A stretch of 64,000 nucleotides of DNA from Alphaproteobacteria bacterium (lineage in GTDB: Bacteria > Pseudomonadota > Alphaproteobacteria > GCA-2731375), in contig CBDDBZ010000039.1 in the NCBI GenBank assembly GCA_965225945.1, positions 128,001 to 192,000 of the forward strand, in the 5' to 3' direction. This document shows, one piece after another, positions 3,162 to 19,762 of this stretch. Each line of letters starts with the position of its first letter. Position 1 is the first letter of the stretch. The notes under the pieces were generated by a model, which was not told the DNA's origin, did not search any database, and worked only from the letters and a program-made list of their open reading frames with translations. The translations under genes were made by a program, and so were the position numbers.

Positions 3162-5128
3162 CGTTCCGTCCCCCGATGTTAAGTACGTGACGTGAATTAA
3201 ACTCCGGTTCGGTTTTCAGAACAATCAAGAATTAGCCGGATCGCCTCCTCAATGCGCCTGCGCCGGCCCTTGCCTGCAGTCCAAGGAGACACACTACATA
3301 TAGTGGGTGTGGGTGATAACCGGATAGGCAAGCTTCATTCAGCCCTCTCATTATGATGACGATGGTTATGTCATCCAGTGGCTGCGCTCGGAGATTCCCT
3401 CGAATTCGATGGCCCTGATGAACGGCATCGTGCTGGACTGCATCCAACACCGAGTGTTGGGCGAGGATGTCGAGATCGAAGTGAGCGCCAGCGACGAGAC
3501 CAACACGCGGATCAAGCCCTCCGATATCATCGAGGAAATCAGGCGAGGCGGCGGGAAGGGGCTGGTGGCGCTCGTCGGTGTGCAGTCGAATCAGTTTCCC
3601 CGTGCCCTCGACATCTCGAGACCGCTCAGAGAGGCCGGAATTCCGGTCTGTATCGGAGGCTTCCACGTCAGCGGCTGCCTGGCCATGCTGCCGGACATTC
3701 CCGTCGATATCCGCGACGCCATGGACCTCGGCATCTCGATCTTCGCCGGCGAGGCCGAGGGCCGTTTCGACGAGGTGCTCCGGGACGCCCACGCGGGCCG
3801 GCTGAAGCCGTTGTACAACTACATGACGGCTCTCCCCAATCTGGACGGCGCGCCGATCCCGATTCTGCCGCGTGGCAGCATCGAGCGCACGGTCGACGCC
3901 TTCACCAGCTTCGATTCGGGCCGCGGCTGCCCCTTCCAGTGCAGTTTCTGCACGATCATCAACCTGCAGGGCCGCAAGTCGCGTTACCGCAGCGCCGACG
4001 ACGTCGAGCGAATTATCCGGCAGAACAACGCCCAGGGCATCCGCAAGTTCTTCATCACCGACGACAACTTCGCCCGCAACTCGAACTGGGAGGCGATCTT
4101 CGATCGTCTCATCAAGCTGCGAGAGGTGGACGGTATCAAACTGAAACTGATCATCCAGGTCGACACCCTCTGCCACCGGATCGAGGGGTTCATCGAGAAG
4201 GCGGCGCGCGCGGGCACGAATCGGGTCTTCATCGGTCTTGAGAACATCAATCCGGAGAACCTGTTGGTGGCGCAAAAGCGGCAGAACCGGATCACCGAAT
4301 ATCGCGAGATGCTGCAGGCATGGAAGCAGGCCGGCGTCATGACCTATTGCGGCTACATCGTGGGTTTCCCCGGGGACACGCCCGAACGGGTTCTCAATGA
4401 TATCGAGATCCTCAAGCGCGAACTTCCCATACACTTGCTGGAGTTCTTCTGCCTGACCCCGCTGCCCGGCTCGCAGGATCACAAGGAGCTCGCGGCCAAG
4501 GGCGTGGCGATGGAGCCGGACATGAACAAGTATGACCTGGAGCACGTCTGTACGGCGCACCCGAAGATGAGCGCGCAAGAATTCCAAGAGCTCTATGAGC
4601 GTGCCTGGGACACCTTCTATACGGACGAGCACGTCGAGGCGATCATTCGCCGCGCGGTGGCCTCGGGGATGCGGCCGGGCCCGGTGAAGACGGCGCTCCT
4701 GGAATTTTATGGCTGTCAACGTATCGAACGGGTGCATCCGTTGCAGGGCGGCCTGTTCCGCCGCAAGTATCGGCGGGATCGGCGCTCCGACATGGCGCTG
4801 GAGAGCCCACTGGTCTTCTACCCCCGCTACCTCGGCGAGACGATCCTCAAAGTCACCCGTTTCTGGCTTCTGAAACGACGCTACGACCGCATTCTCGCCC
4901 GAGTCTTGGCAGACCCGGAAAGGGCGCGCTACACCGATTTGTCGATTTCGCCGGTGGTGGCGGAGGAGTTGGACGAGCTCGAGCTCTTTTCCAACTCCGA
5001 CTCGGCCAAGGCCGCCGTCGCAAAGGCACGCCGGCAGCAGCAAATGAGTGCCGCGCACGCCGCCCCGCCCCTCCAAGTCAGCCAGGCATCGTAACCTCGC
5101 GCCTGGTCGGGAGCAGGGAGGCCGGCGC

Positions 5129-12049: not shown

Positions 12050-12928
12050 ATGAAGATCGGTCTATTCGTCCCCCTGTGCAACCCACACCACACCCCCGAC
12101 TACATTCGCGCCCTCGGCCGCGCGGCGGAGGCGCGGGGCTTCCACTCGCTCTGGCTCGGCGAGCATGTGGTGCTGTTCGACGACTATGATTCGAAGTATC
12201 CCTATGCCGAGGACGGCCGGATCGGCCTCTCGGCGGAGGCCGGCCTGGTCGAATCCTTCACCGCGCTGGCCTTCCTCGCGGCGGAGACCCGCACGCTCCG
12301 TCTCGGCACCGCCATCTGCCTGGTGCCGCAGCGCAACCCCGTCTACACCGCGAAGGAAGCCGCCTCGATCGACTATCTCTCCGAGGGGCGCTTCGATTTC
12401 GGCGTCGGCGTCGGCTGGCTGCAGGAGGAATTCGAGGCCCTGGGCGTGCCCTTCGCACGCCGCGGCGCGCGCTGCGCTGAGTATCTGGAGGTGATCAAGC
12501 GGCTCTGGTGCGACGAGATCTCCGCCCATGAAGGCGAATTCTACCGCCTGCCGCCCTGCCGGCAGTTTCCCAAGCCGGTGCAGCGGCCGCATCCACCGAT
12601 CTATTTCGGCGGTGAAAGCGAGGCCGCGCTGCGTCGCGTCGCCGACCTCGGCGACGGCTGGCACGGCTTCAACCTGACGCCCGAGGCGACGGCCGAACGG
12701 CTCTGGCGGCTGGACGAACTGCTGGCCGAACGCGGCCGCGACCTGAGCGACGTCGATATCACCGTCTCGCCCTATCTGCATCCCGCCGACACGGAAGCGA
12801 TGCGGCGCTATCACGCGGCCGGGGTCGAGCAACTCGTGGTGATGGTGCTGACCCGCACGGTCGAGCAACTGGAACGCCGGCTCGACGACCTCGCCGAGGA
12901 CCTGGTGCGGCCGGCCGCCACGCTCTGA
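12050..12928 (+). CDS. LLM-class (luciferase-like) oxidoreductase
   Basis: AEARGFHSLWLGEH, RLGTAICLVPQRNP, GRFDFGVGVGWLQEEF; AGGAG RBS. Confidence 0.9.
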   Translation: MKIGLFVPLCNPHHTPDYIRALGRAAEARGFHSLWLGEHVVLFDDYDSKYPYAEDGRIGLSAEAGLVESFTALAFLAAETRTLRLGTAICLVPQRNPVYTAKEAASIDYLSEGRFDFGVGVGWLQEEFEALGVPFARRGARCAEYLEVIKRLWCDEISAHEGEFYRLPPCRQFPKPVQRPHPPIYFGGESEAALRRVADLGDGWHGFNLTPEATAERLWRLDELLAERGRDLSDVDITVSPYLHPADTEAMRRYHAAGVEQLVVMVLTRTVEQLERRLDDLAEDLVRPAATL

Positions 12929-12987
12929 AGAGCCGCGCTCGGAGCCAAGACTCGAAAGTCGCCGAAGCCGGCCTATCGGCCGGAGAC

Positions 12988-13617
12988 TCAGGACGCGCGG
13001 GCGGGGAAGATCTTGGTGCGGGCCCGGAGCGCCTGGAGAAGGCCGTCGACGCCGTGGCGCTTCACCACGGCCGCGAACTCCGCGCGTTGCGTCACCGCCA
13101 TGGAGACACCCTCCACCGCGACGTCGATGATCTTGTAGTGGTTGTCGATCACGCGGATGCGCCACTCGGCGTGAATTGGCGATCCGCCCGGGCGCTGGAT
13201 CCGGGTCGAGACCACGATGTCGCGCTTGCCGGTGGCCCGCGCGCCGCCGACCTCGAAGCTCTCGCCGGCGTAGCCGCCGAGGCGGCGTGAATAGGTTGCC
13301 AAGGTATATTCCGAGAACAGATCCAGGTAATCGCGCTGCTGTTCGCTGCTGGCGCCGCGCCAATGGCGGCCGAGGGCGAAGCGGGCGATGAAATGAATGT
13401 CGAAACCTTGCGCCAGCAGGCGACGGAAGGCCGCCTCCCGCTGCTCCAGACTGCCGGAGGTCGTGCGCAGCACGGAAATCGCCTGGCCGGCCAGCCATTG
13501 CATGAACTGGGCGGCACCGTCGATCTGGGCTCGAGATGCTGCGGCGTGGGCGGAGTTCCAGAATAGTGCCAGTGCCGGTAGCCCGGCGAGTAAGGCGCGT
13601 CGCGTGGGTCGTCGCAT
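12988..13617 (-). CDS. MlaC/Ttg2D-family phospholipid-binding periplasmic protein
   Basis: Signal peptide with RR; FD...IARFALGRHWR and KIIDVAVEGVSMAVTQRAEF. Confidence 0.85.
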   Translation of the reverse strand: MRRPTRRALLAGLPALALFWNSAHAAASRAQIDGAAQFMQWLAGQAISVLRTTSGSLEQREAAFRRLLAQGFDIHFIARFALGRHWRGASSEQQRDYLDLFSEYTLATYSRRLGGYAGESFEVGGARATGKRDIVVSTRIQRPGGSPIHAEWRIRVIDNHYKIIDVAVEGVSMAVTQRAEFAAVVKRHGVDGLLQALRARTKIFPARAS

Positions 13618-13832
13618 CGTCGCTCGGCCCCCTGACCGATTCGGAACCGCGATTCGCCAAAGTCCGGTCCGCCGGAGAGGCGACGACGCGATTCGGGGAA
13701 GTATCTCAAGAAAACATGGGCCCCGAAAGTCTCTCGACCAGTGATGTCGATCACCGCCTGGACGCGCGAATGCACCGCCGGAGGCGGCCATAGATCATGA
13801 GATTCCGAGTATTGCCAAGTCTTTAACCCGCT

Positions 13833-13864
13833 TGTGGATAATACTGTGGAAAACTTGTTGACAA
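13833..13864. promoter_or_regulatory. Cluster of three co-oriented DnaA-box-like sites
   Basis: TGTGGATAA 13833-13841 (perfect TTATCCACA complement), TGTGGAAAA 13845-13853, TGTTGACAA 13856-13864, in an AT-rich stretch. Confidence 0.6.
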
Positions 13865-13868
13865 ACAC

Positions 13869-15091
13869 CATGGTACACGACGGCATTTACGTAGGACGTT
13901 GAAAAGGTTGTAGGATTCCCGATTCACTCCACGACGAGTCAAGAGGGAAATCATGCGAGACAACCCGATCAACGCCCTGCGTGAGACGCTACGATGCGGC
14001 TTCGCCTTTCGCAAGAGCCGTCTGGAGAGCCTTTGCGTCTTGGTCTTCGGCGTGTTCGTCGCCCGGACGGTGAACCTCTCTCACTTGGCCTGCCACTTTC
14101 CGGGGCGCGCGCGATCCAGCTCCAACTATCGGCGCCTGCAACGGTTTTTCGAGCAAGTCGATTTCGATTACGATCGCCTCGCCGAGTTCCTGGTCGCGAT
14201 GATGGGGCTCCAGGCGGGGCCGTGGCGGCTGACCATGGACCGGACCAACTGGCGGCTGGGTCGCCGCGACGTCAACATCTTGATGATCGGCATCGTCAAC
14301 CGCGCCATCGCCATTCCCGTGTGCTGGCGGGTGCTCGACAAGGCGGGCAATTCCAATACCAAGGAGCGGATCGCGATCCTCGAACACGTCCTCCGGCTCT
14401 TCGGGGTCGACAAGATCGCCAGCCTCCTGGCCGACCGGGAATTCATCGGCGACGCCTGGCTGGCATGGTTGCAGGAAAAGGCCATCCCCTTTCACATCCG
14501 CATCCGATCCAACATCAAGATCGCCAACACGCGTGGTCGCATGGTCAAGGCGAGGGAGCTGTTTCGCGACCTCAAACCCGGGGAAAGCTGCATCCTCTCC
14601 AACGCCAGGCGCCTCTCGGAGGCCAGAAAACCCAAGGCCAGGCCCGTCTTCGTCGCCGCGCTCCATCTCAAGACCGGCGAACTGTTGATCGTCGTGACCA
14701 ACGACGCGCCCGAGGAGGCCTTGGCCATCTACGCCCAGCGCTGGCAAATCGAGACCCTCTTCGCCGCCTTGAAAACCCGTGGCTTCAACCTCGAAGACAC
14801 CCACATGACCGACCCGGAGCGCATCTCCAAGCTCACCGCCGTCCTTTCCATCACCTTCTGCTGGGCGCACAAAGTCGGCGATTGGCTCCACGAGGCCGAG
14901 CCGATCCGCCTCAAAACCCACAAAAGGATGGCAAAATCCATCTTCCGATACGGTTTCGAGTGGATAAGGCGACAGCTCGTCAATCCTATCGACAGGCGTC
15001 AAGCCATTGAGCTGATTCGTTTCCTCGTCCCCGGAAAACCACCAGTCCAGGTGCCCAGGCCAAAGCCAGCATGAACGAGTCGTGTACTGTG
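13869..15091 (+). mobile_element. IS4-family insertion sequence (1223 bp)
   Basis: Imperfect 13-bp IRs CATGGTACACGAC / GTCGTGTACTGTG; 9-bp TSD GACAAACAC at 13860-13868 and 15092-15100. Confidence 0.9.
13953..15074 (+). CDS. IS4-family DDE transposase
   Basis: MDRTNW, ADREFIG and YAQRWQIETLFAALK (YREK motif). Confidence 0.93.
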   Translation: MRDNPINALRETLRCGFAFRKSRLESLCVLVFGVFVARTVNLSHLACHFPGRARSSSNYRRLQRFFEQVDFDYDRLAEFLVAMMGLQAGPWRLTMDRTNWRLGRRDVNILMIGIVNRAIAIPVCWRVLDKAGNSNTKERIAILEHVLRLFGVDKIASLLADREFIGDAWLAWLQEKAIPFHIRIRSNIKIANTRGRMVKARELFRDLKPGESCILSNARRLSEARKPKARPVFVAALHLKTGELLIVVTNDAPEEALAIYAQRWQIETLFAALKTRGFNLEDTHMTDPERISKLTAVLSITFCWAHKVGDWLHEAEPIRLKTHKRMAKSIFRYGFEWIRRQLVNPIDRRQAIELIRFLVPGKPPVQVPRPKPA

Positions 15092-15149
15092 GACAAACAC
15101 TTAACGAACATTTGGCTTACGCATAGTTTTATTTGATCTGGCACGCGTT

Positions 15150-16430
15150 TTTTGCCTGCTTCCGTTTTTCTGCGAGAGTCGGTTTGCACGCGTTGGCGTC
15201 GAGACCAGTTCTGGGTGGCGACCAAGGCTTCGGGAGGCGGCTTTTTCGGAAGCCGGTTCCCACTGGCGGCGGAAGCCCCGGGAAGTGGATCTCGATCGGG
15301 AAGCGAGAAGTTTCGGCTTCGGACTTTCCGGTGCGGAGCGACGTGTTCTCCGCTGGCGGTGTCGCCGCTTGGATGATGCGATCGCGTCCTAGGTCGGTTT
15401 TCGGATCGGCCGATGGGGTGATCGGATCGCAAGGGCGGCGATAAGACACCGTCGAGGCGAGGCGCATCGCGCCCCAAGCGGCCCTTCGGGGCGGGCGCGA
15501 CGAGCTTCGGTCGGGGGCGGCGCGGTTCCGCGACCCGCGCGGGGAGGGGCTTCCTCGGAAGCTTTGCCTCGCCGGTGCGTGGATCGTCGCCGGAACGTCC
15601 GCCGCGAGGCGGATGCGACCACGGGCTCGGTGTGACGGTGACTTCGGTCGCCGGCGCGCGGGGCGGGTGGACTCCGATCCGGGACCATGCGCGGCGCGAC
15701 ACGGCGTCTTGGGGCGTCGCGACGGGCCGGACATGGAGACCGGAACGCGATACGCCGATCCGACGGTTCTCTCGGGAACCTTCGTGGCGACGTGGTTTCG
15801 GGCATCCCGGCCAGGCGTTCGGTCGCGCGGCGGCTCGTGTCCGTCGTCGCCCTCCTCGGAGGGTGATGTCGGTCGAGGGACGGCGCGGGTCCGGCGAGAG
15901 GCGCAATTTCGGCGCGCGGGAGGCGTCGGAGATGTCGGGTCGATGCGAGGGCGACCTCGTGGCGATGTGGCGGAACCGAGGCGGAACGGGCATCGAGGCG
16001 CGCGAATCGACGGGCGAGACCGAACCGGTGGCGTCGCGTTCGGCGGCGGTGGCATTCTTCGGAATGCGCCGGCGTCGGGGGCGAGGTCGCGCGAGCCGCT
16101 GGGCTCGGACGGGGCAAACCTTCGGGTCGGTCTCGCTCGGGACGGTGGGCGCGAGCCGGGCGGGCACGGCGGTTCGGGTGGAAAGGCGCGCGGCACGGAG
16201 GACGGAAGATCGGGGCTTCGCCCCGGGTCGGCCGGCCAAAGAGGCCGAACGACGGAACGCCCGAAAGCCGACGGCGGTCGAGATCGCGGATTTATCCGAG
16301 ATCGAGACCGCCGCCAGGTACCGCAACGAAGCGCGTGTCGGGAGCGAGAGCAGCTCCTAGGGCGTCGGGCGCACCCCTTCGGGGAGGCGACGCGTGGACC
16401 CAACCACCACGCGACCCGGCGCCCTTACCG
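15150..16430 (+). ncRNA. Candidate large structured non-coding RNA (boundaries approximate)
   Basis: At least 10 hairpins, most with UUCG/CUCG/GNRA loops; G-U pairs favour the + strand; strong G skew; overlapping ORFs are only Arg/Pro/Gly-rich shadow frames. Confidence 0.55.
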
Positions 16431-16702
16431 TTGCTGCTCATATAGCAATGTTCCCCTCTCTCCACAACAAAATTTTGCGCCTCCGCGCGACCGAACCCCA
16501 ACCTGTTGCGTTTCGGTGTCGGTCAATGCGAAGCGACGGGGCCAATGCGTCGGCCGCGCGGCGGGGCGAAGGAGACCTCGAAAATATCGAACGATGGTTC
16601 GAAAAGCGGCTGCTGGCGGCCCGGAGCCGTGCTAGCATGACGCCCTCCGAGCCCTGAGCGCGGAAAGCGCGACACCGGGCGAGGTCTGGGGAGCACCAAT
16701 AC

Positions 16703-17803
16703 ATGGACTTCATACGGATTTCGGCCGATTCCCACGTCACCGAGCCGCCGAACTGCTACATCGACAACATCGACCCCAAATATCGCGACACCGCACCCCA
16801 TATTCGCCACGACGAGAAGCTGGGCGACATCTACGTGATCGACAAACTCGACATGACGGTGCCGATGGGCCTGGTCGCAGCCGCCGGCAAGGATCCGAGC
16901 GAACTTCGGGCCAAGGCGGCGAGCTTCGACGATCTCCATCGCGGCGGCTGGGACCCGGTGCAGCGGCTCGAAGACCAGGACCGGGACGGCGTCGCGGCCG
17001 AGATCATCTATCCGACCGTCGGCATGCCGCTCTGCAACCACGAGGACGCGGATTACAAGAAGGCCTGTTTCGATGCCTACAACCGCTGGCTCCTGGCTTT
17101 TTGCGAGCGTGCGCAGGACCGCCTGATCGGCTGCGGCCAGACCGCGATTCGCTCGGTCGAGGAGGGCATCGAGGATCTCCGCCGGATCAAGGAGATGGGC
17201 TTCAAGGGCGTGATGATGCCCGGCAGCCCGGTGATGAGCGATTATGACGATTCCATCGACGATCCCTTGTGGGAGGCGGCGATCGACCTCGAGCTGCCGC
17301 TCTCCTTCCACATCCTGACCTCCAAGAACGACAACCTGCACCAGTACCGGAGGCCGAAGATCAACAGCTTCCTGGCCATCATCCGGGGCTGCCAGGACAT
17401 CATCGGGACCTTCATCTTCGGCGCCGTGTTCGAGCGTCATCCCGAGCTGAAGCTGGTCTGCGTCGAGGCCGATGCCGGCTGGGTGCCGCACTACATGTAC
17501 CGCATGGATCACGCCTACAAGCGCCACCGCTACTGGCTGAAGTGCCCGGAGATGGAGCGGCTGCCGAGCGAATATTTCCGCGAGAACGTCTACATGACCT
17601 TCCAGGACGACTGGACCGCCTTCACGTCGACCGAAATGCTCAATCCGAAGCGGTTGATTTGGGCCAACGACTTCCCGCACAGCGATTCGACCTGGCCCTG
17701 GAGCCAGGAGATGCTGGCCGAGCACACGGCCGGGCTGAGCGAGGCGGATCGCCGCGCGATCCTGCGCGGCAACGTCGCCGAGCTTTACGGCCTCGCGGCC
17801 TGA
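16703..17803 (+). CDS. Amidohydrolase_2 family protein
   Basis: ISADSHVTEP, LSFH, CVEADAGW, WANDFPHSDSTWP. Confidence 0.9.
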   Translation: MDFIRISADSHVTEPPNCYIDNIDPKYRDTAPHIRHDEKLGDIYVIDKLDMTVPMGLVAAAGKDPSELRAKAASFDDLHRGGWDPVQRLEDQDRDGVAAEIIYPTVGMPLCNHEDADYKKACFDAYNRWLLAFCERAQDRLIGCGQTAIRSVEEGIEDLRRIKEMGFKGVMMPGSPVMSDYDDSIDDPLWEAAIDLELPLSFHILTSKNDNLHQYRRPKINSFLAIIRGCQDIIGTFIFGAVFERHPELKLVCVEADAGWVPHYMYRMDHAYKRHRYWLKCPEMERLPSEYFRENVYMTFQDDWTAFTSTEMLNPKRLIWANDFPHSDSTWPWSQEMLAEHTAGLSEADRRAILRGNVAELYGLAA

Positions 17804-17830
17804 GCTCTCGCCAGGCTCGAGGCAACGAGC

Positions 17831-19522
17831 ATGGATTATGATCTGAAGATCATCGGCGGCACCATCGTCGACGGCACCGGCGCGCCCGGGCGCGCCGGCG
17901 ACGTCGCCATCAGGAGAGGCCGGGTAGTCGCCCTGGGGGAGGCGCCGGGCCGGGCGGCTGAGACCATCGAGGCCAAGGACAGAATCGTCGCGCCTGGCTT
18001 CGTCGACATCCACACCCACTACGACGCTCAGATCCTGTGGGACCGGACGCTCTCGATCTCGCCCTGGCACGGCGTCACCTCGGTGGTGATGGGCAACTGC
18101 GGCTTCGGCCTCGCGCCCACTCGGGCCGAGCATCGCGAGCTGATCATGCTGACGCTGGAGAAGGTCGAGGGCATGAGCATCGCCGCGCTCAGGGCGGGGC
18201 TGGGCGCCGATTGGCCCTTCGAGACCTTCCCCGAGTATCTCGACGCGATCGAGCGGGTCGGCTTCGCCATCAACGTCGGCGTGCTGTTCGGCCATACGCC
18301 GCTCAGGATGTGGGTCATGGGCGAGGAGGCGGTGGAGCGCCCGGCCACCGAGGGCGAGATCGCCGAGATGCGGGAGCTGCTGCGCCACGGGCTCAGGGCC
18401 GGCGCGATCGGCTTCGCCACCTCCAGGGCCGGCACCCACGTCGGCTACCGGGGCAAGCCGGTGCCGAGCCGGGTGGCCGAGATCGAGGAGATCTTCGCGC
18501 TGGCCGAGGTCTTGGGCGAGGAAGGCCTGGGCGTGGTGCAGGCCACCGCTGGCCGACAGCTCAGCTTCGAGCAGTTCGCCGAGATCAACCGGCTGAGTGG
18601 GCGCACCGTCACTTGGACCGCGCTGCTGGCGGGCCTGGCGCTCGGCGGCGGCAATCACGAAGACCAACTGGCCCAGACCGATCGGCTGGTGGCCGACGGC
18701 TTCGACGTGGTGCCGCAGGTGACGCCCCGGCCGCTCAACTTCGAATACCAGTTCAAGGCGCCCTTCCCCTTCGAGCCGATGTCGACCTTCAAGGAAGTCG
18801 CGGCGGCCGACTTCGCGGGCAAGAGGCGGATCTACGCCGAGCCCGACTTCCAACGGGCCTTCGCCGTCAAGATGCGCGAGGGGGTCAGGCCGAGCTTCCG
18901 CGACGCCTTCGCCAAGACGGTGATCACCGAGCACGGGCCGGAACCGGAGCTCGCCGAGCGGTCGCTCTTCGAGGTCGCGGGCGAGCGCGGCCTTGAGCCG
19001 GCGGCGTTGGCGCTGCAACTCTCGCTGCTGACCGAGCTCGAGACCCGCTTTCGCATGCCGGTGGCGAACCACGACGAGGATCAGGTCGAGAGCTTGCTCA
19101 AGAACAAGAACACGGTGATCGGCCTGTCCGACGCGGGCGCGCACGCGAGCCAGCTCTGCGATGCCTGTCTGCCGACCTACCTGCTGCAGCGTTGGGTCCG
19201 CGAGAAGGGCGTGCTGGAGCTGGAGGAGGCCGTCCGCATGCTGACCTCGCGACCGGCCGAGGTCTTCGGTATCGAGGGCCGGGGCCGGCTGCGCGAAGGC
19301 GCGGCCGCCGACGTCGTGGTGTTCGATCCCGATCATGTCGGCGCCGGACCCTTGCACCGCGTGCACGATCTGCCGGCGGGCGAGGACCGGCTGGTCTCGG
19401 ATGCGTTGGGCATCGAGGCCGTGGTGGTGAACGGCACGCTCCTGCGCCGGGCCGGCGAGGACGTGGCCCGGCCCGATGGCGCGCTTCCCGGCCGCCTGCT
19501 CCGCGGCGGCACGGCCGATTGA
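17831..19522 (+). CDS. N-acyl-D-amino-acid deacylase family amidohydrolase
   Basis: [30 protein letters not shown]. Confidence 0.9.
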
Positions 19523-19583
19523 AAGCCCGCCCGGCTTCGATTAGAGTGGCGGCCGACGCTGGGCCTTGGGCCTGGCGCTCCGG

Positions 19584-19660
<77 letters not shown>

Positions 19661-19762
19661 ATCTTTTCAAGCGAATATATCAACCGACCAAACTTGTTAC
19701 CGGTTCGAGGATTCCCGAGGCCAAGCGCGCCGCCTTCCGGCGCTGCCCAAGGGCCCGACGGG

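Follow-up and report, generated by a model that had tools for sequence, protein, structure and literature searches.

What is encoded in about 1.3 kb of intergenic DNA that holds no evident protein gene and is densely packed with hairpins? This question is raised by a locus within a 64,000-nt stretch of an alphaproteobacterial genome (contig CBDDBZ010000039.1 of assembly GCA_965225945.1, positions 128,001 to 192,000 of the forward strand), which we call the window and to whose positions all coordinates refer. A first-pass annotation, made from the sequence alone, had noticed the hairpins on the + strand of 15150-16430, between an insertion sequence (IS) and an amidohydrolase gene. It proposed a large, structured non-coding RNA (ncRNA) of a possibly undescribed class, and named folding against dinucleotide shuffles, covariation among homologs and transcripts as ways to check the idea. 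Its proposal is supported by the lack of a match in Rfam, by folding, by compensatory changes and by contigs from RNA libraries, and we are highly confident that the locus is a real structured ncRNA gene whose family is undescribed in Rfam 15. The proposed interval is right as a region, but its borders are not: the conserved RNA starts at ~15187, the RNA contigs stop at 16423 and the IS ends at 15091. The parts of the RNA discussed first are the following.

15187..16423, + strand: the RNA, ~1237 nt (folds, z-scores, hairpin statistics, RNA-library contigs, conservation)
15187..15545, + strand: conserved 5′ domain, genus form (blocks ~15186-15208, 15322-15370 and 15517-15543)
15891..16144, + strand: 254-nt species-specific stretch, including hairpin 16052-16067 (a single 254-column gap in the genus relatives G001 and G002)
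16314..16446, + strand: conserved 3′ domain, the family signature (covariance models R1-R3)
15238-15255, 15481-15492, 15636-15653, 16052-16067, 15549-15562, 15765-15780 and 15845-15868, + strand: UUCG or CUCG hairpins found by scan
15596-15615 (GCGA loop), 16211-16225 and 16118-16127, + strand: hairpins confirmed by direct reading

The structured RNA at 15187-16423

The segment 15187-16423 is non-coding. G+C content by codon phase is flat over ~14920-16600 (maximum minus minimum 0.04-0.19, versus 0.3-0.6 in the flanking genes), and the flanking transposase, amidohydrolase and MlaC genes have strong G+C codon periodicity. Four long shadow open reading frames (ORFs) that cross the region match no Pfam family. 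Among the three species studied in the genus, namely that of the window and two others (G001 and G002), indels that are not multiples of 3 make up 15/15 between the window and G002, and 26/27 and 14/16 in other comparisons. Substitutions are spread evenly over the three codon phases. G+C periodicity, Pfam, and the phase of indels and of substitutions are therefore all in line with the early remark that the interval holds no credible protein.

Every hairpin in the first-pass list is present where it was placed, according to a hairpin scan and direct reading, and the one at 15549-15562 extends to 15546-15565. The scan, which covered 15186-16425 and called a UUCG or CUCG loop on a stem of at least 4 pairs, finds 9 such hairpins on the + strand and 0 on the - strand. 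Dinucleotide shuffles of the segment (n=1000) have 0.72 ± 0.85, with a maximum of 4. The count of 9 is the highest among all 1240-nt windows on both strands of the 6.27-Mb genome, in which the next non-overlapping windows have 5. The word CTTCGG occurs 8 times in 15186-16425 versus 1.0 expected. There are no tandem repeats in 14900-16800, so the hairpins are not copies of one unit. The claim that stems differ while loop types recur holds. The reported 33 G and 15 C in 16141-16200 are exact, and both the long bulged helix and the multibranch domain at 16359-16425 reappear in consensus folds.

The minimum free energy (MFE) of 15187-16423 is -719.8 kcal/mol, versus -663.8 ± 9.2 in 25 dinucleotide shuffles (z -6.06), and its reverse complement has a z-score of -2.38 (25 shuffles). 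The + strand therefore folds better than its shuffles, and more so than the - strand. In the MFE fold, which is a chain of short helices, 72% of the bases are paired and there are 21 hairpin loops (6 UUCG, 3 CUCG, 2 GCGA, 2 UUC, the rest mixed). In a scan by 160-nt windows, the strongest signal lies in 16200-16520 (z -3.5 to -4.7), and two of the three windows in 15160-15479 have z-scores of -2.5 and -3.0.

In both of the other species of the genus, the syntenic region is likewise non-coding and G-skewed; it measures 1.0-1.1 kb and is 70-76% identical in patches. Blocks that are invariant or nearly so in the genus lie at ~15186-15208, 15322-15370, 15517-15543 and 16326-16433. The full-length consensus fold of the three species has 319 pairs, of which 64 have changed on both sides while remaining paired, versus 29.5 ± 3.8 upon shuffling. 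Sliding the partners by one to three columns leaves 6-18 double changes and 39-46% of cells paired, versus 91.7% of cells in the actual fold. In the consensus fold of the 5′ domain, 16/74 pairs have changed on both sides. The homologs thus have compensatory changes and lack a codon-type pattern. Many invariant G-U pairs, which can form only in + strand RNA (e.g., columns 136-1431, 178-199 and 242-269 of the full-length alignment), extend the early observation of such pairs to the three-species consensus. The species-specific stretch 15891-16144 reads as a recent expansion of the hairpin chain.

Some further features were noticed in these alignments. The consensus fold includes a helix of 15192-15200 with ~16429-16437, which has 9 pairs, of which 4 are G-U, shows no double change and extends past the 3′ end that was observed. 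As the RNA contigs end at 16423, a genuine helix here would be a stem at which the primary transcript is processed. Two downstream blocks, 16466-16478 and 16494-16508 (CAACAAAATTTTG and AACCCCAAC.TGTTG), are invariant in the three species. They might signal where the transcript is terminated or processed, or be a site that controls the amidohydrolase genes. An exact search of a genome collection with a 21-mer of an invariant block gave 4 matches of 21-25 nt, all in coding DNA of metagenome-assembled genomes (MAGs) of Myxococcota and Vicinamibacterales, which we attribute to chance; the search omitted genomes close to that of the window and is uninformative on the genus.

The stretch is present in RNA libraries. 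Of the 24 public runs listed, 20 hold the stretch or part of it, 8 of these are recorded as RNA, and the holders come from eight studies. We compared four metatranscriptome runs, as contigs, over 12500-19700. In run X10, a contig of 1157 nt covers 15268-16423 with 0 mismatches and one inserted base, at a depth of 293. Contigs of flanking single-copy genes in this run, also with 0 mismatches, have depths of 3.5-9.5, and that of the 47-copy IS has a depth of 67.5. A contig in run X12 likewise stops at 16423. In X12 and X16 there is an 886-nt contig (depth 120 and 43) whose overhanging letters are those of the G002 form, and the RNA is abundant in at least two members of the genus within the same samples. 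A run from a second study has pieces at 15310-15636 and 15843-16197. Some flanking bins are empty in each of the four runs, which speaks against a carry-over of DNA, with the proviso that a hole in the cover by contigs, as opposed to reads, proves nothing by itself. The stretch thus occurs in RNA libraries as a long, deep contig, which gives no strand and only rough ends. The RNA is likely abundant, and there is a weak hint of a 3′ end near 16423. Since the contigs carry no strand, our assignment of the transcript to the + strand is a probable one, based on the structure, the G-U pairs and the one-sided hairpins.

As a separate observation, the G002-like RNA signal in X12 and X16 falls on 15290-15374, 15507-15541 and 16151-16188 of the window.

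We compared the locus with Rfam 15, whose 4227 models include rRNA, RNase P, tmRNA, group I/II introns, OLE, GOLLD, ROOL, HEARO, raiA, 6S and alphaproteobacterial small RNAs (sRNAs). Over the whole window, the sole match at gathering score is a tRNA (19584-19657). A search of 15000-16750 with E up to 10 gave three chance-level matches on the - strand, at 15-19 bits versus cut-offs of 70-91, and eight homologous loci gave no match with E up to 1. No signature of rRNA, RNase P, tmRNA or group I/II introns had been recognized in the first reading, and Rfam likewise has none at the locus. Literature searches found nothing resembling the hairpin-chain RNA and no DnaA-controlled ncRNA of this kind, within a coverage that excludes supplements, the usual home of sRNA lists for model species. 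A short member of the family may be listed as an anonymous sRNA in some transcriptome study. The genome itself has an alpha-type tmRNA (alpha_tmRNA) elsewhere, which places it in Alphaproteobacteria.

Layout and distribution of the family

Members of the family share a layout in fixed order: an AT-rich stretch with 2-3 DnaA boxes, a body of variable length whose short helices often carry C(UUCG)G or C(CUCG)G caps, and a ~130-nt 3′ domain with a three-way junction.

The 3′ domain is made up of a hairpin (16317-16339), outer helices and the junction, with arms at 16371-16388 and 16391-16413. In the window, the junction is closed by a helix of AGGGCGTCGGG (16359-16369) with CCCGGCGCCCT (16415-16425). 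The sequence of this helix is nearly invariant in the family (GGCGUCAGG/CCUGACGCC; GGCGUCGGG/CCCGGCGCC in the window). The first arm usually has a UUCG loop. The second arm is variable, and its loop is the C-rich CYCCGCG in many families and ACCCAACCA in the window. In g5, a genus of the same taxonomic family, and in most other families, a U-run of 4-7 follows the closing helix. The window has UUACCGUUG at this place, with no U-run, and a scan finds no + strand terminator there. In most lineages, we infer, the junction also works as an intrinsic terminator, a feature lost or altered in the genus of the window.

Pairing in the 3′ domain is conserved. Among 22 sequences, 91.2% of cells are paired versus 75.2% upon shuffling, 32/46 pairs are double-changed, and slid partners give 37-48%. 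In a wider set of 45 matches, which includes doubtful ones, 87.7% are paired versus 68.1% upon shuffling, 40/46 pairs are double-changed, and slid partners give 36-46%. None of 500 shuffles reaches the observed values in either of these tests or in the full-length test above.

Our first covariance model, built from 16314-16446 in the three species of the genus, has full-length matches in two other genera of the taxonomic family. With five sequences, the model gives one weak match each in 19/21 genomes of a third genus (g5). With 22 sequences (R3), there is exactly one match (E ≤ 1e-12) in 25/33 genomes of the taxonomic family, which belong to 4/8 genera, and none in genera g2, g3, g6 and g7. 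Neither R3 nor a DNA search finds a second copy in the genome of the window. Of 151 alphaproteobacterial genomes sampled one per family, 15 have R3 matches, and four of these have two or three copies each. In 150 other genomes of the phylum, R3 has 0 matches, a search with stricter Infernal filters. In both large searches 22 candidates were scored per genome, so absences are weak. A short member of the family, blasted against plasmids, had no match. Two weak matches (L041 and L060) lie inside coding sequence and are taken as false, and two others (L073 and L075) are doubtful.

Some individual genomes have unusual arrangements. G160 has two complete RNA genes in tandem (L058, G160:C67), ~870 nt apart and each with its own DnaA boxes, and G081 and G178 have three dispersed copies each. 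In a complete chromosome, the RNA gene (L076, G104:C1, 3700-4250) lies directly upstream of rpsB-tsf-pyrH-frr-uppS-cdsA, 4 kb from the start of the record.

The body, between the RNA start and the 3′ domain, ranges from almost nothing (L062, L071 and L059, with RNAs of ~150-300 nt) to more than 1 kb. The RNAs of the family are therefore ~150 nt to 1.3 kb long, and the window has an expanded form. Body sequences cannot be aligned between genera, but their make-up is shared: they are non-coding, G-skewed and rich in C(UUCG)G hairpins. The G skew is 0.08-0.18 in the window's own taxonomic family and less in some others. Each of the 23 full-length homologs of this taxonomic family has 5-18 UUCG/CUCG hairpins on the strand of the RNA, versus 0-2 on the opposite strand. 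CTTCGG occurs 184 times in the g5 bodies versus 9.8 expected. Among enriched hexamers in the bodies, the tetraloop words alone stand out, and there is no linker motif and no GGA-type word.

Upstream of the RNA, the window has the following features.

13833-13841 and 13845-13853, - strand: DnaA-box-like pair, TGTGGATAA (perfect reverse complement of TTATCCACA) and TGTGGAAAA (one mismatch)
13869..15091, + strand: IS, 1223 bp, with a DDE transposase ORF at 13953-15074 (terminal inverted repeats, Pfam DDE_Tnp_1)
15117-15125, + strand: third-box remnant TTACGCATA, three mismatches (within 15117..15185)
15155-15185, + strand: promoter-like stretch, CCTGCT (15155-15160), 17 nt, GTCGGTTT (15178-15185)

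An AT-rich stretch precedes the RNA in every genus; its G+C content is 35-50%, versus 60-68% for the genomes. The pair or triplet of boxes recurs upstream of the RNA in G001, G002 and G009, in all 19 g5 loci and in most matches in other families. Two or three boxes have the same orientation and are ~11-12 bp apart, and one of opposite orientation lies 20-40 bp further on. The boxes are followed by a promoter-like CTTGTY-N17-CAYNATTT and then by the conserved RNA start, YTGCRYG. In the genome of the window (G000), only 14 boxes are perfect, and allowing up to one mismatch gives 463 (0.074 per kb). For 38 loci, we took the AT-richest 300 nt upstream of the 3′ domain, which contain 71 boxes (at most one mismatch to TTATCCACA) versus 2.9 by shuffling; at least two boxes are present in 30/38 loci. 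Since the boxes lie outside the search model, they are independent support for homology.

G000 has only one other cluster of at least three boxes (contig C36, ~202255-202344; L050, ~3700-3860). It consists of one TTATCCACA and four TTATCCCCA-type repeats, and occupies a 180-bp gap upstream of a gene for class II ribonucleotide reductase. The nrd genes of E. coli and Caulobacter are controlled by DnaA, and the position of this cluster fits a role of the boxes in transcription control. Judging from these arrangements, the RNA gene is probably under DnaA control, and the pair at 13833-13853 is its putative upstream control module, now severed by the IS.

The IS is an intruder that recently inserted into the upstream region of the RNA gene, and is not part of this gene. 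It is flanked by a 9-bp target duplication, GACAAACAC, at 13860-13868 and 15092-15100, and G000 has 47 near-full-length copies of it, most of them with an identity of 99.7% or more. G001, G002 and G009 lack the IS at the syntenic site, which implies a native intergenic region made of 13792-13868 and, directly after it, 15101-16702. The insertion parts the boxes at 13833-13853 from the promoter, and they are displaced by 1.2 kb. Control by DnaA may therefore be weakened in the genome of the window, though the RNA is still abundant there. The putative promoter at 15155-15185 is inferred by its position. It aligns with CTTGTC-N17-CACGATTT in G002, CTTGTT-N17-CATCAATA in G009 and CTTGTT-N17-CCACCATT in g5. 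The RNA would begin at ~15187, which is suggested by the start of conservation (GCACGCG, 15186-15192) and by a G002-like contig that begins at the equivalent of ~15206.

The genome is amid an IS burst. It also yields ~45 matches to an IstB-like ATPase of 246 aa, which surfaced as weak Bac_DnaA matches. The bin 13705-13945 has a mean depth of 242 in X10 and 47-75 in two other runs, which the contigs listed do not explain. This depth could come from a short abundant transcript of the MlaC/RNA intergenic region, from a strain that lacks the IS and in which the 5′ part of the RNA falls here, or from fragments of IS ends.

The genes that flank the RNA vary between genera, which indicates that the RNA gene is independent of its neighbours. 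An MlaC gene adjoins it in g1 and g8 only, the upstream gene in g5 encodes an Fe-alcohol dehydrogenase, and the downstream genes vary.

Possible functions of the RNA

We consider it reasonably probable, as a whole, that the locus is an ncRNA gene of an undescribed family whose transcription is controlled by DnaA, whose product is protected by its structure and which acts in trans. In mechanistic terms, DnaA on boxes ~60-120 bp upstream of the start would control transcription, so that the level of the RNA would follow the replication cycle or DnaA activity. The three-way junction would serve as terminator in most lineages and also as a protective structure at the 3′ end. In the window, where the U-run is missing, trimming back to the helix could produce the 3′ end at 16423. 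The G-rich, C-poor and fully folded chain of hairpins might let a long untranslated RNA escape Rho and single-strand-specific RNases, which would explain the abundance and the composition of the RNA; this step draws on established properties of Rho and of C(UUCG)G hairpins. Lastly, the RNA would act in trans via its conserved ends, either by binding protein or, in lineages whose second arm has the CYCCGCG loop, by pairing of this loop with G-rich sites in mRNAs. Taken jointly, we view these steps as tentative.

Going further, the family could couple an abundant trans-acting RNA to the replication cycle, with a 1.2-kb chain that has grown in one order by repeated insertion of UUCG-capped hairpins and has gained a function, and it would then be a bacterial RNA that has expansion segments. 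Such an RNA could feed back on initiation or on cell-cycle regulators, and the chain could be a high-capacity protein sink or a carrier proof against Rho and RNases. We regard this extension as doubtful.

Several points weigh against the favoured reading, or against parts of it. Both the binding of DnaA to the boxes and the direction of control are predictions. Simple scans of 13700-16800 for a sigma-70 consensus and for intrinsic terminators find no + strand site, and the promoter hexamers of the window are the most degenerate of the set compared. The genes in the neighbourhood give no pointer to a partner protein or target, and since the loop of the window is ACCCAACCA, rather than CYCCGCG, the idea of pairing with mRNAs may not apply here. 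As to structure, the full-length fold was derived from the same alignment in which changes were counted, and the alignments of the 3′ domain were fitted to its model, so both lean to structure, although the full-length fold has a large excess of double changes; moreover, the sequences are related and do not count as independent. In 160-nt windows, the middle of the RNA folds only slightly better than shuffles (z -0.4 to -1.9), which suggests that much of the raw stability is owed to a G+U-rich composition and cautions against over-reading the folding energy. As to expression, the contigs give no strand, have rough ends and carry one depth each, and contig depth is a poor measure of expression. 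The X10 contigs leave 15151-15267 uncovered, including the first 80 nt of the RNA (15187-15267), and both contigs that stop at 16423 stem from one study.

The best of the alternatives, which we nonetheless consider unlikely, is that the RNA is a multivalent sponge or scaffold for protein, in which the repeated short GC helices, with their inert UUCG caps, are the active part and bind many copies of a hairpin- or dsRNA-binding protein (for instance an RNase, a helicase or a cold-shock or nucleoid protein), in the way that CsrB titrates CsrA, and growth of the chain tunes capacity. It would account for a repeated unit that is structure and not sequence, with differing stems and recurrent caps, as well as for the compensatory changes that preserve hairpins, the range of 5 to 18 hairpins among relatives and the abundance of the RNA in libraries. 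However, forms of ~150-300 nt in other families have almost no chain, so the chain is dispensable for the core function. Moreover, no linker or loop motif beyond the tetraloop is enriched, UUCG loops are poor contact sites, and gene neighbourhood links no candidate protein to the RNA.

Quite improbable, in our estimate, is that the locus works as DNA, i.e., as an origin, a secondary origin or a site of DnaA titration, with a G-skewed transcript that acts locally (transcriptional activation, R-loop) and a free RNA that is a by-product. G-rich transcripts favour RNA-DNA hybrids. The transcript is indeed G-rich (skew +0.15 to +0.27), DnaA boxes lie beside an AT-rich stretch in every lineage, and there is a precedent in CcnA, which is described as an ncRNA gene inside the Caulobacter origin (PMC8959179). 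The genomic context lends no support to an origin, however. The cumulative GC skew of contig C39 has no switch at the locus, which lies at 143 kb, and that of C36 gives no support either. On the complete chromosome of G104, skew at 21 places makes a noisy profile with no switch from negative to positive at the locus. The neighbours include no dnaA, hemE or parAB and are metabolic genes instead, and dnaA itself lies on a different contig. The presence of two or three copies in some genomes, and of a tandem pair in G160, also fits poorly with an origin, as does the fixed geometry of boxes and promoter. Finally, covariation involving G-U pairs and the conserved 3′ junction indicate selection on RNA.

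A long cis-acting leader (5′ UTR) of the amidohydrolase genes that start at 16703 is very improbable. The RNA is on the same strand and directly upstream of the amidohydrolase gene in the window and in G001, and a simple scan finds no terminator-like site in between. The RNA contigs, however, stop at 16423, 280 nt short of the start codon, and the contigs of the downstream gene are ~30-80 times shallower. In addition, the intervening DNA of G002 holds other coding sequence, the gene downstream in G009 is convergent and encodes a protease, and in g5 genomes a U-run terminator is followed by unrelated genes. Barely credible is the idea that the locus has no function of its own, as a decayed gene, an IS-related remnant or a GC-rich spacer with hairpins due to chance or mutation bias: the middle of the RNA does evolve fast, with many indels including the one of 254 nt within the genus, and an IS adjoins the gene, but the hairpin count and MFE are far outside shuffles, compensatory changes occur in the 3′ domain and in full-length folds, the element is kept, together with its conserved promoter module, in 15 or more of the families sampled, all relatives have it without the IS, and it is deep in RNA libraries.

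Significance and relation to known systems

An ncRNA gene with predicted DnaA control thus remains the reading that we prefer. The family is easily recognized by its DnaA boxes, hairpin chain and conserved three-way junction, occurs in many alphaproteobacterial families and is abundant in natural samples. To our knowledge, few large bacterial ncRNAs have been found, and each led on to a fresh line of research. The constant association with DnaA boxes leads to a testable idea, namely that the output of the RNA is coupled to the initiation of replication or the activity of DnaA. Lengths that range tenfold, and that differ by 254 nt even within one genus, make a natural series on the role of an inert and very stable chain of hairpins, and the family bears on the way in which long transcripts that are not translated may withstand Rho and RNases in GC-rich bacteria. 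Even if it is an ordinary sRNA with a decorative 5′ extension, it is a family missing from annotation, of which R3 finds one copy in 25/33 genomes.

The RNA shares with OLE, GOLLD, ROOL, HEARO and raiA its large size, high degree of structure, abundance and conservation, and like them it has no evident tie to the genes around it. These RNAs have elaborate conserved multi-stem cores. By contrast, only the ends are conserved here, the body has a roughly tenfold range in length, and the Rfam models of the known RNAs do not match.

CsrB and RsmZ are sponge RNAs that likewise have many hairpins in one abundant RNA, in numbers that vary by species. Their hairpins present GGA in the loop for CsrA, and CsrB titrates this protein. 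The loops in the new RNA are UUCG or CUCG instead, with no other repeated motif, and the 21 loops of its MFE fold show no repeated GGA motif.

The individual hairpins are the extra-stable C(UUCG)G type, which Tuerk et al. reportedly described in 1988 as RNA stabilisers. Such hairpins block 3′ exonucleases and nucleate folding. We know of them as single hairpins at mRNA ends and in rRNA, and not as a chain of 5-18 in a dedicated ncRNA.

The upstream region resembles DnaA-controlled promoters such as those of nrd genes, in that a phased array of DnaA boxes lies just upstream of the promoter. Here, however, the product is an RNA and not a replication-related protein.

The nearest published RNA is CcnA (cell cycle non-coding RNA A) of Caulobacter crescentus, as it is described in PMC8959179. 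It, too, comes from an alphaproteobacterium and has a gene that is physically linked to DnaA boxes, and hence to the replication cycle. Its proposed action is that of a C-rich loop on G-rich ribosome-binding sites (PMC8959179), and the CYCCGCG loop on the second arm of many members of the new family resembles this C-rich loop. As far as a comparison by description goes, the new family differs in that its boxes lie upstream of the promoter, it has no features of an origin, multiple copies are possible and the RNA is up to 1.2 kb long. By that description, the two share the link to DnaA boxes and are set apart by place, size and promoter.

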